Positions 31,801-37,800 of a stretch of DNA of 64,000 nt are shown here, one piece after another. Source of the DNA: Candidatus Bathyarchaeota archaeon (lineage in GTDB: Archaea; Thermoproteota; Bathyarchaeia; Bathyarchaeales; Bathyarchaeaceae); contig CAVOMX010000014.1 of NCBI GenBank assembly GCA_963697165.1, positions 69,140 to 133,139 on the forward strand. Reading direction: 5' to 3'. The position numbers are program-made. Each line of letters opens with the position of its first letter. The first letter of the stretch is position 1.

Positions 31801-34800
31801 TCGTCTACAGGGTCGACTACCCTTACCAAACTTTCGCGCTGTCTTAGATTGCTGCTTCACCATAGATTCACCATTTTCACAGTATTTCAACATCAAACTC
31901 GTCTTTAATAAACAGTATCGCTTCCGTGGAGGTTAGCAGATGGTCTTTTCCGATTTTACACTTGGTACGATGTCTACGCTTAACACGATACCCTGCTCTA
32001 CCAAGGGAAACCGAGACATCCATACCGTGGATGCCAAGTTCAGGCACGTATTTGGTGCCGGGAATGTCTATATGCTCCTTGATTCCAAAGGAAAAGTTGC
32101 CTTGACGGTCAAAACAGTATTTTGAAAGCTTCTTTTCGACGGCATACAAAGCTTTTTTGAGGAATTCTTCTGCTTTTTCGTCTCGAAGAGTTACTAGGCA
32201 CGCTATGGATTCCCCTTTTCTGATACCAAATTCACGTATGGTCTTTTTGGCTTTCCTTTTGGATGGATTTTGGTTTGTTAGTTGTTTTATAACGGTCACA
32301 GCCTGTTCCAGAGGTGCTCCAGACTTTCCAACCGACATGTTGACAGTTACCTTTTCAATTATAGGCTTAAGCATGGGGTTTCCAGTCCATTCTTTGCGTG
32401 GCGGTCTAGCTACTTTAGGCGTTACTTTCGCCTCTGTTGCTGCCTCTTTCTCAACAGACGGAATCTTTGTTTCTGCCACAGGCGTTTGTTTGGTAGGAGT
32501 AACAGCAGGCTCAGATGCCTTCTCTTTCGGCACCACTTTCTCTTCTACTTTCTTCTCCGCCACAGGCTTCGCTGCAACAACAGGCTTCGCTGCAACAACA
32601 GGTTTCGCTGCAACAACAGGTTTCGCTGCAACAACAGGTTTCGCTGCAACAACAGGTTTCGCTGCAACAACAGGTTTCGCTGCAACAACAGGTTTCGCTG
32701 CAACAACAGGTTTCGCTGCAACAACAGGTTTCGCTGCAACAACAGGTTTCGCTGCAACAACAGGTTTCGCTGCAACAACAGGTTTCGCTTCGGTCTTAAT
32801 TTCCTTCTTTTCCGCTAGAACTTTTGGTTTAACATCAGGAACCATTGCTTCTTCAACTTTCTTTGCAGTGACTGCCTTCTTCTCCACAGGAGGAGCCGCT
32901 TTCTTTTCTGCCATTTTTAATCTGCCTCCGGTAGGGATATTAAAGGTTCAGTTTCGCCCAAAATGAAAACGAAATCAAGGATTGTTTGGAATTGATCTCC
33001 ATTTACGTTTTTGAGAGTGACAAGTAGATCTCTACGTTTTTTATTTGGCTTCTTTTCGATGGAAATAATCTTGCCAATCTGGCCAATGTTTTTTCCGCCG
33101 ATTACTATTGCAGGTGCTCCTACAGTTAACTTTGTGTAATCAATAATCTCTCTATCAGTGACGCTAAGCTTTAGGACATCAAGAGTGTGATAGATGTCTT
33201 CCTCTGCATTCTGAGGATTGTCCACAGCAATCAGGAAGTTTGATCCGTCATGAAGATTGAGCTGTATATTTCCACCGTTTACGACGGTTTTGTCTTCTAT
33301 TCTCCAGAGCTTGAAAACAGCATCATCAGAGCCAATTGGATGAAGAAAGAGACCCTTCCCAGAGGGCAATACCCGATAAGACTTCTTAGTGTCAACTATT
33401 GAGATGACATCCATCAAACCGACAAGAAAACGCTCGTCTCGTCTAACTTTTCCGTCAACCATTATCTTTCCTTTAGAAATTATGTTCTTGGCTTCCTTAC
33501 CAGTTTTGGCGAATCCAAGAATATCCCGTACAATAAGGGCTAGCGGTAAAGAACGTGAAAGGGAATGTGGACCAGGCTTTGGCATAACAGTCCAAACAGC
33601 TTCCTTTCTATGAATAGGCCACATCTTTGGCGCAGGTTTCCTCTTCAAATGTCCGCTTTCGCCTTTTCTTCCCAACTTATGTTCCTCCAGATTGTTTAGT
33701 TACTTTACTTGTCTTTTTCTTCTTTTTTGCTTCTTTTTTCGGAGGCTCTTTTTTGGCGATTTCAGATTTCTCGCTTACAGCCTTTCTTTCCAGAGTCTTT
33801 TTTCGCCATTTGTCATCAAGATTTAGGCGCGTTATCATTACCTTTGAAGGATGAACATGAACAGGGATCGAAGTTCCATCCACCTTCTCACGAGTCGCTC
33901 CTTCAACGAATATCCTATAATTTTTCCGATCAATCTGGGTTATCTTTCCTTCTGAACCCTTACGGTCTCCCCTCATGATCATAACAGTGTCGCCGTTTCT
34001 CACCTGAACCGAATTGGTGCCGTGAGACTCCTTCAATTTAGATGAAAGAGGCGCAGAGAATCGTCTGTATCGCTCGGTAACAGGAGCCTGATACATCCTT
34101 TTTCTCTGTTTAGTAGGTTTTGTTGTCTTCATCTGTTAAATCTCCTATACGATAATACTGGCAGCGCTGGCGACTCTAGGCCACTTCTCTGCTGCCTCCT
34201 TCGCAATGGGTCCCCGAATCTCTGAGCCACGCATTTCGCCCTCAGGGGTCATTATTACAGCGGCATTATCTTCGAATTGGACCCAGACTCCGTCAACACG
34301 CCGGAACGGCTTTTTCTGCCGGACCACAACGGCGTGAAAGATTTTTTTCCTCAGGTCGGGTGTACCTTTTCTGATTGAAACGGTGATCAGGTCTCCAACA
34401 GAAGCTGACGGAACACGTCTTAATCGTCCATGGTATCCCATAACTTGAATTAGCCGAATTTCTCTTGCACCAGAGTTGTCTGCACATTTCAAGATGGAGC
34501 CGTTTGGTAATCCTCGAGAAATTTTTGGCTTCTGACCTACGACGCCTTTCGCCATAAATGCTCGAGACTTAGCTCTTGCTGCCACTAGAAGCATCCTCCA
34601 GTTTTTCGATTACAACGAACGATACGGTTTTGCTTAATGGACGGCACTCTGCTAATTTCACTTTGTCTCCTGCTTTGATTTCTAGGCAGGGAGGACTGTG
34701 TGCAGGTACGTTGCCGCGTCTTCGTTCGTATCTTTTGTATTTTGGTACATAATTTAGGTAGTCACGGCGGACTATGATGGTTTTTTCCATCTTGTTGCTG

Positions 34801-37800
34801 ACTACAATACCTTCCAGTGCGTGTCCCCTTAGGGAAAGGGTTCCGTGAAAGGGACAATCTATATCGTCACATGTTTTCTTTGGTTTTTTTGCAGTAAGGG
34901 ATGACATTTACCATAGCCTCCTAGGTCGTTTCTTAAGTCGATCTTCAGGTCGCCCAATTATGACTTTGCCGTCCATCTCTACAACCGTTCCATCTGGCAA
35001 GACAAAATCAAAAACCGAAGTTTCCTTGACGATGACTCTTTTCTTGTTATCTCGTAGGATCGTAAATGTGTTTCGGGTTTCGTCTACTACTATACCCGTG
35101 ATTCCCACTATATCAGGGTTTGAACTGTTAACCACCGTAGTTTCGAGGCCAATGAATTCATCCTGAACTATGCTTGGAGTTACAGTCATTTCTTTTCGTT
35201 CCCCCGTTTTACTTCTGTTTCGATTGTTAGTAAACGAGCAACGGTTTTACGTAATTCACGTATTTGAGTGGGGTTGTCTATGGCACCGCCTGCCGCAACC
35301 ATTGTTTTCAATCTTGCGAGTTCTGTGCGTAACTCGTTTATCTTTTCTGTCCGTTGATCAGAAGACATTTCGCGGATGTCTTTTAACCGTAAGATAGCCA
35401 TCTTATTCGCCTACCTCTTTCTTTTCTTCAGTTGCAGATTCTTTTGTTTCGGCTACCTTCTTCTCTGTTGCAGGCTGCTTCTTTGGCAGGAGCAACAGCA
35501 GGCTCAGATGCCTTCTCTTTCGGCACCACTGTCTCTTCTACTTTCTTCTCCGCCACAGGTTTCTCTACAGGATTAGCCTCTGTCTTAACTTCCTTCGTTT
35601 CTGTTACAACTTTTGGTTCAGCAACAGCAACCACTGCTTTTTCAACTTTCTTTTCAGTTACAGCCTTCTCCACAGAAACAACTGGTTTTTCTTCAGTTAC
35701 GGCTTTGTCTTCAGCAGAAGGAACAGCTGTTTTGACTGCTTTCTCGACAGACTTTGTCATTTCTGTAGAAGAAGGAACTGTAGATTCAGGTGCAGGTTCT
35801 TCAACTACCGCTGTTTCTTCAACAAGAGAAACCGCTGGTTCAGCTATTTTTTCTTCGGTTACTGCTGATTCCTCAACTATTTCTCTTTCTGATGTGCGTT
35901 CAACTTCTTCTTCAACCACTTGAACTTTTATTTGGTCTGGAAACTGTGCATCAGGAGGAAGTAGACTCACTCTTACACCCAAGGTTCCAGGTTTCAGTTG
36001 GACGTGTAACTCCGCTTTTCTAAGGTATTTTCTTGGAGGTTCCCCACTTTTAGGCAAGTAGCCTTCGCTGAATTTTTCGTAGCGAGCACGGTCAGTCCGT
36101 AACTTACCGCTTATGATAATTTCTATTCCCAGTGCTCCTGCTTCCATAGCCTGAGTTAGTCCCCAGAATCCGGCTCTTCGATAGTGAATTCCCCGTTTCA
36201 AGGCTGAGGAAATCCGCGAAGCAACAACGTATGCGTTGAGTTCTGGGACTTCGATTTCAGCCACCGAAATTTGTGGACTGGGAAGCTGGAACTTTTCTTC
36301 AAGGACGGTAGCGAGCGCTCTTATGGTTTCGCCGCCTCGTCCGATTACTAGACCGGGGCGCATGGTGTACACGACTAAGTGTGTTCCCAGAGGGGTTTTT
36401 GTGATGCTTACGCCGCCGTATCCTGCTCTCTCGAATTCATTCCGTAAAAATTCGTCAATCTCTGTCCTCTTTATTGAATCTTCTATAAAATGTTTAACTA
36501 CTGACACGTTTAGTTTCCTTCCATCTCTTCCAAAACAAGCTCTACATGAGAAAGAGTGTTAAATCGCGGTGATGATTTCCCGAAGGCTCGGGGAATGAAA
36601 CGTTTTATCTTCATTCCAGGGTAAGCTGAGGCATGTATTATTCGTAGTCGTTCCATTTCAAGTCCTTTATATTCGGCGTTTGCTTCAGCGCCTTCAAGCA
36701 CCATTAAAATGTGTTGTGCAGCTTTAACAGGGTATCTGCCAGAGAAGCCCTTTTCTAAGCCATGGCGATGTCCTACTTTTTTGTTAAATCTCCGGAATGG
36801 AACAGGTTTTTTCTTCAGGATAACTTGACGAAGGTAGTCTTTGGCTTGACCGAGTTTCATTCCTTTTATGGTATTACACACTTCTCGCGCGTGTTTGGGT
36901 GACACTCTCATTTCGCGTCCGCTAGCTTTTGCTGTCTTCTCTAGATTCATATCGGTTATTGAGTATCCCCATTTTGTCATATCTATCGTCCAAGTCAGTA
37001 ACCAGCAGGATATTTAAGCCTTTATGGCGAAGGGAAACAATTTGGCACTCAAAAACCGTCACAAAAGAATTGAAAATAATGGTTTCAAAGTATAGGCATG
37101 TACTTCAATTGTGTAACAGAAGCTTAAGGCTTTAAAGTGCTAGAAGATTGAGGCGATTCAGGGGGTTATGAAGGTAACGAAATATATCTATATATTGCGT
37201 TTAGGTTTTATTTACATCAGAAAGGCAGACAAAACTCTGTACATTCTGAGGGTGTAGAAACGGGTCTGGAAGACTTTAGTGGAATAGTGTGTAAAAGTTT
37301 GAAGATAGTAAGGTGTGAGATACTTTGATGGTTCAGAAGCAGGTGGTAGAGGCTTTGATGAAGCCTGAGGCTTACGGGGAAGAAATGGGGGAAATTGAAT
37401 TGAAACAAACCCACATTTCATTTGTTTTCTTAACCAGAAATTTTGTTTACAAGGTTAAAAAGGCTGTAGATTTTGGGTTTCTAGATTTTTCGACTCTTGA
37501 GAAGAGGCGTTTCTTTTGCGAGAAAGAGTTGGAGCTAAACAGGCGGTTATGTGGAGGCATGTATCTGGAGGTTGTTCCCGTCAATAAATCAGCAGCAGAT
37601 GTTATCAAAGTAAACGGTGAAGGAGAAATCATCGAATACGCCGTGAAGATGAAAAGAATTCCTGAAGAAAAGATAATGACTCGGCTTCTTGAAGAAGGCA
37701 AAGTTGACAAAAGTCTTGTTGATAAAATGGCGAAGATTATCGCTGAATTTCACTTGAAGGCAAGAACAAGCAATAGAATTTGCGAGTTTGGGTCATTGTC

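Follow-up and report, generated by a model that had tools for sequence, protein, structure and literature searches.

Related low-complexity tails on ribosomal proteins uL5 and uS3 of Bathyarchaeum, with indications of gene conversion between them

Two low-complexity tails in one ribosomal protein operon

In the ribosomal protein operon of a Candidatus Bathyarchaeota archaeon from sediment, uL5 and uS3 are encoded with long stretches rich in Lys, Glu, Ala, Pro and Val, N-terminal in the first protein and C-terminal in the second. What are these tails, how are they related, and what could they do on the ribosome? We analysed a window of 64,000 nucleotides, the whole stretch of DNA to which all positions refer, and compared it with other genomes of the genus, the family and the class. 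The genes and tails are as follows.

31877..32914, minus strand: uL5 gene, a 345-aa ORF including the tail (Pfam and alignment to solved chains)
32393..32914, minus strand: uL5 N-terminal low-complexity tail, residues 1-174, between the conserved M-A-E-(E/K)-K start and the likewise conserved ..RKEWTGNPMLKP
32562..32789, minus strand: 18-nt unit repeated in tandem, 12.7 copies, giving (AAKPVV)12 (repeat finder, 99% matches)
35428..36507, minus strand: annotated uS3 gene with a GTG start, encoding 359 aa (ORF, Pfam and PDB alignment)
35431..35910, minus strand: low-complexity tail at the C-terminus of uS3 (residues about 200-359), its core-proximal part acidic and its distal part mixed or basic
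35403..35486, minus strand: where uS3 probably ends in reality, read in the +1 frame (..PATEKKVAETKESATEEKKEVGE); its TAA (35403-35405) precedes the ATG of uL29 by 1 nt

The uL5 protein matches Pfam PF00281 (Ribosomal_L5) at residues 179-232 (67.9 bits, curated cut-off 34.9) and PF00673 (L5_C) at residues 237-317 (71.1 bits, cut-off 27.8). Its best PDB match is the uL5 of 4V4N/4V6U (E 1.6e-52), and the alignment with solved archaeal uL5 chains begins only at residue 174. The ORF, the Pfam domains and this alignment agree with the genome-wide survey's note that uL5 has 345 residues, of which about 170 are extra at the N-terminus. The gene lies between eS4 (32917-33675) and a 65-aa zinc-ribbon ORF (31699-31896), which is the place expected from the order eS4-uL5-uS14; the names of the neighbours were read from their sequences, without a family scan. 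The spacer from the eS4 stop to the uL5 ATG measures 2 nt rather than the 3 nt first reported, and both tails are indeed in frame within a tight operon.

For uS3, PF07650 (KH_2) was found at residues 16-88 (52.1 bits, cut-off 22) and PF00189 (S3_C) at residues 99-181 (80.6 bits, cut-off 34.1), and archaeal uS3 chains in the PDB align over about residues 1-204 (E 1e-58). About 150 residues of the 359 are extra at the C-terminus, where the survey had given about 140; this tail has no PDB match, and the Pfam scan placed no family over either tail. The last 18 residues of the annotated protein are the product of a 1-nt frameshift, caused by a surplus base around 35476. Contigs from the X2 and X3 runs are one letter shorter at this position, the other uS3 proteins of the genus end in ..KEKKEAEK/E or ..EAGE directly before uL29, and in the +1 frame the protein stays colinear with the tail of uL5 (10/22, E 0.008). 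That only these two ribosomal proteins have more than 25 extra residues is a claim we could follow within this operon, where uL24 also has a K-rich C-terminal tail of about 30 aa.

In the source genome, the share of K+E+A+P+V is 89% in the tail of uL5 and 74% in that of uS3, with charged-residue fractions of 0.31 and 0.38, respectively. An AlphaFold2 model of uL5 has no secondary structure in residues 1-179; its mean pLDDT is 38.5, the core being poorly predicted too, and this model is no independent support for disorder of the tail.

Similarity between the two tails

The segments shared by the two tails are the following.

32479..32576, minus strand: uL5-tail segment near-identical to a uS3-tail segment (blastn, 90.9% over 99 nt, in frame)
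35471..35569, minus strand: the corresponding uS3-tail segment (blastn, 90.9% over 99 nt)
32777..32914, minus strand: initial 46 residues of the tail on uL5, which align colinearly to a block further upstream in the uS3 tail, at 35566-35700 (BLASTP, 26/46)

Composition-adjusted BLASTP aligned the tails colinearly in two blocks, with 24/28 (E 7e-10) and 26/46 (E 4e-7) identical residues. The homology between the tails that had been proposed therefore survives the adjustment, and the DNA is up to 91% identical, with a 37-nt exact match within the shared segment. In-frame HSPs between the two tails were found by blastn in 21 of 22 genomes. The accompanying claim that they resemble nothing else was borne out as well: with the uL5 tail as query, the assembly (81% complete), searched in six frames, returned only that tail and the one of uS3, and when all 5330 frames with 80 aa or more were scanned for composition, no low-complexity stretches besides these two came up.

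The repeat array, recovered with the unit, copy number and match reported by the survey, reads AAKPVV twelve times. It is bridged by no contig of four sequencing runs, and its copy number is thus given as in the assembly only. A near-identical uL5 protein (P0001, 273 aa) lacks exactly the 72 array residues, the array is short in P0004 and P0008, and the uL5 tail of G011 has a different, 10-residue array. Most members of the genus and all uS3 tails have no obvious long tandem array, as judged by eye, the repeat finder having been run on the window only. On these comparisons of related proteins, the twelve-copy array is a strain-level expansion.

Distribution and probable direction of copying

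The uL5 tail is found in 25/25 Bathyarchaeum genomes, and the 35 genomes from 19 further genera of the family all lack it. Where the match to uL5 begins (query residue 2-151 in the 24 other genomes of the genus, 161-178 in the 35 of other genera) was reproduced exactly as the survey gave it. Shorter tails, of 4-83 aa, are present on uS3 in 13 other genera of the family, and elsewhere in the class other families commonly have a uS3 open frame 300-440 aa long. The survey's pair of genus-level tails thus stands for uL5, whose tail no other genus of the family has, but not for uS3, whose tails are family- and class-wide; a uS3 tail invented in the genus is ruled out by this distribution. Another lineage within the class (f19; G295, G251 and G196) has both an N-terminal uL5 tail and a long C-terminal uS3 tail, with no detectable shared sequence between them.

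As uS3 tails are widespread in the family and class while the uL5 tail is confined to one genus of the family, the copying would have run from uS3 to uL5. The starting state would be a uS3 that, as is common in the class, ended in a charged low-complexity tail of variable length. In the ancestor of the genus, DNA of the distal uS3 tail would have been copied about 3 kb downstream within the same operon and inserted at the 5' end of uL5, behind about codon 5; uL5 would thereby have kept its old ribosome-binding site and start codon while gaining an internal N-terminal tail. Both tails may since have been altered quickly by replication slippage, as suggested by the 12 x 18-nt AAKPVV array and the 10-residue array of G011.

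Probable gene conversion between the tails

Under concerted evolution by gene conversion, the paralogous segments of one genome should be more alike than those of different genomes. Ranked by longest exact match, a genome's own two tails outscore all cross-genome pairs (row and column) in 7/22 genomes; the matches are 26-71 nt long in these seven and at most 26 nt between genomes. By blastn score the within-genome pair likewise comes first in 7/22, and the two sets have five genomes in common; were all pairs equivalent, the expectation by our own arithmetic is about 0.5 of 22. Mapping these five genomes on the core tree requires five changes, at least four of which are forced by well-supported branches. 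The shared segments differ from genome to genome (blastn), and no third copy of the module was found in G000, G012 or G022. Because the shared segments differ and the genomes sit in scattered lineages, the tail sequences indicate recurrent gene conversion.

The pattern is uneven. Composition-adjusted BLASTP puts the within-genome pair first in only 4/22 rows and 2/22 columns, and 12/22 genomes have no excess of within-genome similarity by either DNA measure, so conversion appears to have been episodic and not universal. Genome-specific composition could also inflate within-genome similarity somewhat. The exchange would be non-reciprocal conversion between two direct repeats; reciprocal exchange would delete eight essential genes and not survive.

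Charge, constraint and possible functions

K+E+A+P+V make up 74-93% of the tails in most genomes, and within the genus their net charge varies between -38 and +44. This spread argues against one conserved electrostatic role. Selection on the tails would be weak and seemingly directed at bulk properties (presence, length and K/E/A/P/V make-up) instead of sequence. Conserved blocks within the uL5 tail, such as ..VVPKEKAxEPAV.. and ..EPKVAKPPRKEW, may hint at constraints more specific than that.

Such blocks would also suit a functional pair of tails, with identical segments selected to bind the same partner (protein, membrane or nucleic acid) or each other, for instance as a fuzzy link from the small-subunit head to the central protuberance, gene conversion being only the means. 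Consistent with this, the tails are kept in all genomes of the genus in which the genes are assembled, the module occurs at no other genomic locus, and tail dN/dS is below 1 (0.22-0.76 over the 12 closest pairs, with 0.04-0.18 for the cores). Net charge per residue of the two tails, however, correlates positively (Spearman 0.66, n=22, not corrected for phylogeny), the opposite of charge-complementary pairing, and the charge itself swings from strongly acidic to strongly basic between species. In the 12 genomes named above, moreover, a genome's own tails are no more alike than cross-genome pairs. The f19 lineage has independently acquired both tails; this co-occurrence is weak evidence, because these tails share no detectable sequence and long uS3 tails are common in f19. 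We consider a functional pair unlikely.

Lysine-, alanine- and proline-rich stretches dominate many tails, and the uS3 tails of G012, G017, G021 and G023 carry net charges of +38 to +44, which would suit histone-H1-like polycations that bind rRNA, mRNA or DNA, for example to capture mRNA at the entry channel beside uS3 or to anchor ribosomes to the nucleoid. A precedent is the Ku protein of Mycobacterium smegmatis, whose lysine-rich PAKKA repeats are described as modulating DNA binding (PMC3553676). This interpretation is improbable given that 11/22 uS3 tails are net acidic (down to -38), that the core-proximal part of the uS3 tail is acidic in nearly all species, and that the tails of f19 and of most other sampled genera are acidic too.

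Evidence for translation of the uL5 tail

The survey's note had left open whether uL5 starts at the annotated codon or at an internal Met. One further feature bears on this.

32925..32929, minus strand: Shine-Dalgarno-like GGAGG within the last part of eS4, ahead of the ATG of uL5 (32912-32914)

In 21/25 genomes of the genus, uL5 starts directly after the eS4 stop with ATG (3) or TTG (18), followed by A/T-E/D/K; in the other four the start could not be defined (two contigs end inside the tail, and G007 and G009 are irregular). All 21 have CGGAGG or GAGG 4-18 nt upstream of this start, and none has a Shine-Dalgarno motif before the internal ATG (NPM). The same TTG position is used as the uL5 start in six genomes of five tail-less sister genera (M-SEEEIRKKWNENPMLKP). 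The extra piece is accordingly not prepended, as the word extension had implied, but inserted behind an ancestral start codon. The frame is open in 25/25 genomes over tails of 56-174 codons: there are no in-frame stops in 2437 uL5 tail codons, and 124 and 272 in the other two frames. We found 246 long uL5 proteins in sequence sources (E <= 1e-10), some of which name them L5. The single RNA run used (X15) gave a few short contigs, among them 48 nt from within the array and 151 nt from the tail of uS3; such a library can contain DNA.

Lying behind a conserved start codon and a Shine-Dalgarno site common to tail-less sister genera, the uL5 tail is, on this genomic evidence, almost certainly translated. 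That uL5 truly starts at the Met inside ..NPMLKP, with 510 nt of unusually long spacer that is open by chance, is highly improbable: an ATG is present there in all genomes, but the Shine-Dalgarno motifs stand at the upstream start, the residues before the internal Met (RKEW..NP) are conserved even in tail-less genera that start further upstream, the frame stays open despite changes in length, and dN/dS below 1 does not fit an untranslated spacer.

Comparison with known ribosomal tails

The survey held that such paired tails had not been described. For archaea this stands in the literature we searched, but tails of this general kind are known from ribosomal proteins of Trypanosoma cruzi, which share a common repeat motif, and from mosquito RpL23a and RpS6. 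In mosquitoes, going by the title of a 2007 paper of Hernandez and Fallon, these two proteins reportedly have histone H1-like lysine-rich extensions. Like the tails described here, those would be low-complexity extensions on one large- and one small-subunit protein within a single lineage; unlike them, they belong to a eukaryote and by the same title arose independently, while the Bathyarchaeum tails are a copy of one another.

In T. cruzi, L7a, L19 and L23a carry a common lineage-specific Ala/Lys/Pro repeat motif (PMC5686100). As described there, it is a terminal A/K/P-rich motif (N-terminal in L7a) on several ribosomal proteins of one organism, it is absent from close relatives, and its repeat number varies between strains. 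Similarly, one module stands on two ribosomal proteins in Bathyarchaeum, and the uL5 tail is missing from the 35 genomes of the 19 sister genera. The T. cruzi case differs in being eukaryotic and concerning other ribosomal proteins, and the parts of that paper available to us mention neither DNA-level identity nor gene conversion; the Bathyarchaeum tails are rich in Glu and Val too and have tandem repeats in some strains only.

Both tails also match the terminal, Ala/Glu/Lys-dominated low-complexity regions of prokaryotic ribosomal proteins surveyed by Ntountoumi et al. 2019 (PMC6821194), where a surface position on the ribosome is inferred for such regions and archaeal S3, with 11, ranks among the annotations richest in them. 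The regions in that survey are mostly C-terminal and, in the parts of it that we used, L5 is unlisted and homology between tails of different ribosomal proteins is not described. The uS3 of Methanosarcina acetivorans (PDB 9O17 chain AC, 318 aa) likewise has about 100 extra C-terminal residues, and its alignment with the Bathyarchaeum uS3 runs to residue 267. That organism, however, belongs to another phylum, and its uL5 (9NRI chain BF) has 165 aa and no tail; uS3 is not mentioned in the main text of the structure paper (PMC12605026).

Implications for the Bathyarchaeum ribosome

We think it likely that the two tails are translated, probably disordered (judging from composition) surface appendages, produced by a copy from uS3 to uL5, slippage and gene conversion under weak selection on bulk properties. 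The C-terminus of uS3 is, we assume, at the small-subunit head and the N-terminus of uL5 at the central protuberance, so that the tails would be flexible charged appendages at these two places. Their effects may be non-specific, through steric or electrostatic spacing or loose contact of the lysine-rich stretches with nucleic acid. Tails copied from one another and still swapping sequence would be an unusual twist on known ribosomal decoration. There is also a small chance that they form a co-adapted pair on opposite subunits, shaped by selection together with conversion and serving a common partner or a fuzzy link between subunits or ribosomes. This would be a ribosome decoration of a kind undescribed in archaea, and convergence would then account for the independent uL5 N-terminal tail that another family of the class has in addition to its long uS3 tails.

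Two homologous tails within one operon

The site in the window is the main ribosomal-protein operon, encoded on the minus strand in the order uL22, uS3, uL29, RNase P protein, uS17, uL14, uL24, eS4, uL5, uS14, uS8, uL6 and onward; names other than uL5 and uS3 were read from the translations. The following features are central to the analysis:

31877..32914, minus strand: uL5, 345-aa open reading frame with two Pfam domains at residues 179-317
32562-32789, within uL5: tandem array of an 18-nt unit, 12.7 copies, 99% matches (Tandem Repeats Finder)
35428..36507, minus strand: uS3, 359-aa open reading frame with KH_2 and S3_C at residues 16-181

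uL5 aligned to solved archaeal chains (165-188 aa) from residue 174 only, and uS3 aligned to most of its solved archaeal counterparts over residues 1 to approximately 204. The low-complexity stretches outside these cores are referred to below as the uL5 tail (N-terminal, residues 1-174) and the uS3 tail (C-terminal, from about residue 200 on).

The genome-wide survey's note had described the two tails as homologous to each other and to nothing else in the proteome, and this holds with composition correction, a six-frame search and a composition scan. With composition-based statistics, BLASTP aligned them in two colinear blocks (26/46 identical residues, E 4e-7, and 24/28, E 7e-10); the DNA of the second block has 90.9% identity over 99 nt, in frame (blastn), and holds a 37-nt exact match. 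When the uL5 tail was searched in six frames against the full assembly (1.99 Mb, 81% complete), it matched, at E <= 10, only its own locus and the uS3 tail, the latter in two pieces. The composition scan took in all 5330 stop-to-stop frames of 80 aa or longer and asked for a K+E+A+P+V content of 80% or more within 50 residues; the uL5 and uS3 tails alone qualified, and such tails are therefore no general habit of this proteome. A phmmer search with the 165-aa uS3 tail gave no match at E <= 0.001 among 1.84 billion representatives, a result uninformative on the module in other proteins, and none at E <= 10 among PDB sequences.

Several neighbors have features of their own. The open reading frame read as uL24 (151 aa, 33677-34132, minus strand) ends in approximately 30 lysine-rich residues (..KKEPPKKEAKKKKKTSKVTKQSGGT), a third, far shorter, basic tail of the same operon, which was not picked up by the six-frame search with the uL5 tail as query. 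A 177-aa open reading frame at 27481-28014 (minus strand, ending ..ASYKNGVLEVRLEKLEK..), between those read as uL30 and uL15, looks from its sequence like a small heat-shock (Hsp20/alpha-crystallin) protein, which would be an unusual guest within a ribosomal-protein operon. For uL14, as read (34145-34594, minus strand), the longest frame of 149 aa starts 26 nt within the preceding gene, and an internal Met looks more likely as the start.

Distribution of the tails

Within the family, the uL5 tail is restricted to the genus Bathyarchaeum (25 genomes including this one), as had been claimed. It is present in 24/24 other genomes of the genus, where the uL5 match starts at query residues 2-151, versus 0/35 genomes of 19 other genera, where it starts at query residues 161-178. 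The sample was widened to 301 genomes of the class, 288 of them with a match, and seven uL5 loci outside the genus, chosen for long open frames or early match starts, were inspected. Long frames in four relatives' genomes (G086, G110, G167 and G060) are in fact overlaps with the eS4 frame. The other three carry a real acidic N-terminal tail: G295 and G251 (one genus) and G196 (another), all of a different family, f19 (loci L078, L079 and L080). The f19 tail, roughly 75-90 aa and beginning directly after eS4, is independent of, and non-homologous to, that of Bathyarchaeum, and no sequence similarity was found between it and the f19 uS3 C-terminal tail. The uS3 proteins of G295, G251 and G196 (L085-L087) have acidic C-terminal tails of 163-202 aa.

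The uS3 gene was found in 22/25 genomes of the genus, with a tail of 84-216 residues past core residue 215 in 22/22; in G007 (L045) the frame continues into uL29 without a stop. No uS3 was found in G001, G008 (L027) and G011 (L006), where the contig ends within or next to the uL5 tail in all three, and the match of the uS3 query in G001 (L005) is the uL5 tail of that genome. Outside the genus, 13 other genera of the same family contributed 20 loci, a sample biased to long tails (ten default picks and ten picked for long frames). Their uS3 tails are 4-83 aa long and E/T/K-rich and end in ..EAKE, ..EAGE or ..ETEK; uL29 starts 0-4 nt past the stop. Open frames of 300-440 aa are frequent for uS3 in other families of the class (439 in G119, 431 in G278 and 428 in G160), and beyond the class the uS3 of Methanosarcina acetivorans has 318 aa (PDB 9O17). 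Long uS3 tails are old and widespread because they are present across the family, across the class and in M. acetivorans. The observation in the survey's note was thus confirmed overall, and of its interpretation the homology of the tails and the genus restriction of the uL5 tail stand, while the uS3 tail drops out of the innovation of the genus. The genus-level novelty is the uL5 tail, for which the uS3 tail is a plausible donor.

The uL5 tail is inserted behind a conserved start

In six tail-less genomes from five sister genera, uL5 starts with a TTG one or a few bases past the eS4 stop and reads M-SEEEIRKKWNENPMLKP. An ATG (3) or TTG (18) followed by A/T-E/D/K occupies the same position in 21/25 genomes of Bathyarchaeum, where the conserved start is followed by the low-complexity stretch and then by the conserved ..KPPRKEWTGNPMLKP. 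Since the start is shared with the tail-less sisters and the tail lies between it and the core, the tail is an insertion behind approximately codon 5 and no upstream extension. The remaining four genomes were uninformative: contigs end within the tail in G008 and G011, and G007 and G009 are irregular, the latter (L023) with two TGA codons in the uL5 match and no conserved start found. The TGA codons of G009 and the uninterrupted uS3 frame of G007 could be assembly errors or real changes. In this assembly the uL5 ATG follows the eS4 stop after a spacer of 2 nt (in an A-run at 32914-32916); contigs of two other sequencing runs, X1 and X3, lack one base of the run with the reading frames unchanged, so that the spacer is 1 nt in those strains.

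The earlier note had raised the concern that an internal Met might be the true start of uL5. This is not borne out: CGGAGG or GAGG lies 4-18 nt upstream of the conserved start in 21/21 genomes where it is defined, versus 0/21 for the internal ATG. The tail frame is open in 25/25 genomes of the genus over 56 to 174 codons, with no in-frame stop in 2437 tail codons versus 124 and 272 in the other frames, a count that is partly circular as tails were delimited by open frames. Independently of this count, every open frame runs from the conserved start into the conserved core. Among the genome pairs, the 12 closest had dN/dS values of 0.22-0.76 for the tails and of 0.04-0.18 for the cores, rough figures from low-complexity alignments; constraint on the tail is relaxed, yet present. 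Public collections searched over lengths of 189-604 aa hold 246 uL5 proteins at E <= 1e-10, and among the matches listed (120 of 246) lengths are 219-340 aa with at least 60% identity to the query, some sources naming them L5. Judged from these sequences, the uL5 tail is almost certainly translated from the ancestral start. Coverage of the locus in an RNA run (X15) is too thin a basis for transcription.

Fast local change in the uL5 tail and a frameshift in uS3

The array at 32562-32789 encodes twelve AAKPVV repeats. P0001, a related public protein of 273 aa, corresponds to this uL5 and has near-identical flanks, but exactly the 72 residues of the array are missing; at this site it reads ..KTEAKPVAEKKVEE.., as does the uS3 tail of the present genome. 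The array therefore arose by a recent slippage expansion at strain level. Two other related proteins (P0004 and P0008) have short runs of AKPVV or AKPVA. Contigs were available from four runs, none of which spans the array, so that the figure of 12.7 copies comes from this assembly alone. One low-depth X3 contig joins 32545 to 35601 and may derive from a repeat-less allele or from shared sequence. In G011, at least 8 copies of a different, 10-residue unit form a tandem array within which the contig ends. Contigs end within or near the uL5 tail in three genomes of the genus, and it seems that short-read assemblies of this marker-gene operon are fragmented by the repeats.

The annotated uS3 ends in ..PAKEAACNREEGSRNKRICN, 26 nt upstream of uL29. 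The +1 frame (35403-35486, minus strand) ends in ..PATEKKVAETKESATEEKKEVGE, with its TAA 1 nt ahead of the uL29 ATG; it agrees with the C-terminal motif across genus and family and prolongs the colinear match to the uL5 tail (10/22 identical residues, E 0.008 in a single comparison). One letter at 35476 is absent in contigs of X2 (depth 3.1) and X3 (depth 31.8), which have approximately 96-97% identity to the window here. As this letter is absent there and the +1 frame restores the motif, the extra base is an assembly error or a private 1-nt insertion.

Probable exchange between the tails

Under a single ancestral copying, the uL5 tail of a genome should be no closer to its own uS3 tail than to those of other species. 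Among the 22 genomes with both tails, the longest exact nucleotide match was strictly best for the own pair, by row and column, in 7/22 (this genome, G000, 37 nt; G012, 71; G023, 52; G022, 45; G013, 37; G009, 27; G015, 26), with cross-genome maxima of 14-26 nt. By blastn score the own pair was also best in 7/22 (G000, G009, G012, G013, G017, G018 and G022), with identities up to 93% over 132 nt (G012) and 91% over 158 nt (G022), the shared segments varying between genomes. By our own arithmetic, about half a genome in 22 would be expected to do so if all pairs were equivalent. In a core-domain tree of 20 genomes (G017 and G022 were excluded, their cores being cut by contig ends), the five own-pair-best genomes that it includes require five changes, and well-supported branches force at least four of these. 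Whole-genome searches of G012 and G022 with the uL5 tail found only the query and the uS3 tail; in G013 a HMMER-scored search with the uL5 tail of that genome recovered only the query, though blastn finds the uS3 tail there.

Counting against conversion, composition-adjusted BLASTP placed the own pair on top in only 4/22 rows, and 12 of the 22 genomes have no own-pair excess by either DNA measure. The BLASTP measure was set aside in favor of the DNA measures because it suppresses K/A/P-rich identities: a 34-residue exact match in G012, for instance, scores 16.5 bits. We read the pattern in these sequences as probable episodic gene conversion between two direct repeats separated by approximately 3 kb; were the exchange reciprocal, eight essential genes would be lost, which would presumably be lethal. 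The two tails are correlated in their net charge per residue (Spearman 0.66, p ~0.001, n=22, not phylogeny-corrected), which fits sequence exchange or shared selection alike.

Properties and possible role of the tails

The tails are proline- and charge-rich (charged-residue fraction 0.29-0.56). By eye, those of this genome have no aromatic residues except one Trp of the conserved junction. No Pfam family or solved structure matches them, and they are likely disordered. An AlphaFold2 model of uL5 from a 16-sequence alignment had a mean pLDDT of 38.5, poor even in the core, and is unusable for disorder. The uS3 tails are acidic by the core, with a far end that is strongly basic in many species.

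On the ribosome, uS3 belongs to the head of the small subunit, on its solvent face near the mRNA entry, and uL5 to the central protuberance. The wide spread of net charge across genomes (-38 to +44 for uS3 tails and -3 to +25 for uL5 tails) speaks against a single conserved electrostatic role, for example in RNA binding, and the positive correlation of the charges speaks against charge-complementary pairing of the two tails. Models with specific partners have a low probability. Our working view is that the tails may be weakly selected flexible appendages, in which bulk properties would count above sequence.

Comparison with known cases and significance

Low-complexity tails on ribosomal proteins are known as a class. 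In a published survey, prokaryotic low-complexity regions are frequent in ribosomal proteins, where they are mostly C-terminal, A/E/K-rich and on the surface, and archaeal S3 is among the top annotations, with L5 absent from that list (PMC6821194). The closest parallel is the Ala/Lys/Pro repeat motif shared by the Trypanosoma cruzi ribosomal proteins L7a, L19 and L23a, which is absent in related trypanosomatids and strain-variable in copy number (PMC5686100). Literature searches, with thin coverage of subscription journals, found no account of uL5 or uS3 tails in Bathyarchaeia, no archaeal uL5 described as having an N-terminal tail and no case of gene conversion linking tails on different ribosomal proteins; the Bathyarchaeum tardum paper contains no proteome or transcriptome text. 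Mosquito RpL23a and RpS6 reportedly have H1-like lysine-rich extensions, whose evolution is said in the paper's title to be independent. New here are a datable intra-operon copy, plausibly from uS3 to uL5, inserted behind an unchanged start, and what we read as recurrent conversion between two genes with products on opposite subunits.

Low-complexity tails of ribosomal proteins are common and poorly understood. For annotation, gene callers and marker-gene alignments face uL5 and uS3 of nearly double length in an abundant sediment group. The genus offers a clean natural experiment, in which the origin of a tail is datable (one genus with it, 19 sister genera without), with a plausible donor in the same operon, an unchanged start site, apparently ongoing exchange and products on different subunits. 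It provides a tractable system for asking whether selection on such tails concerns their sequence or just bulk charge and length, and an example of how likely disordered modules may spread between essential, highly conserved prokaryotic genes.
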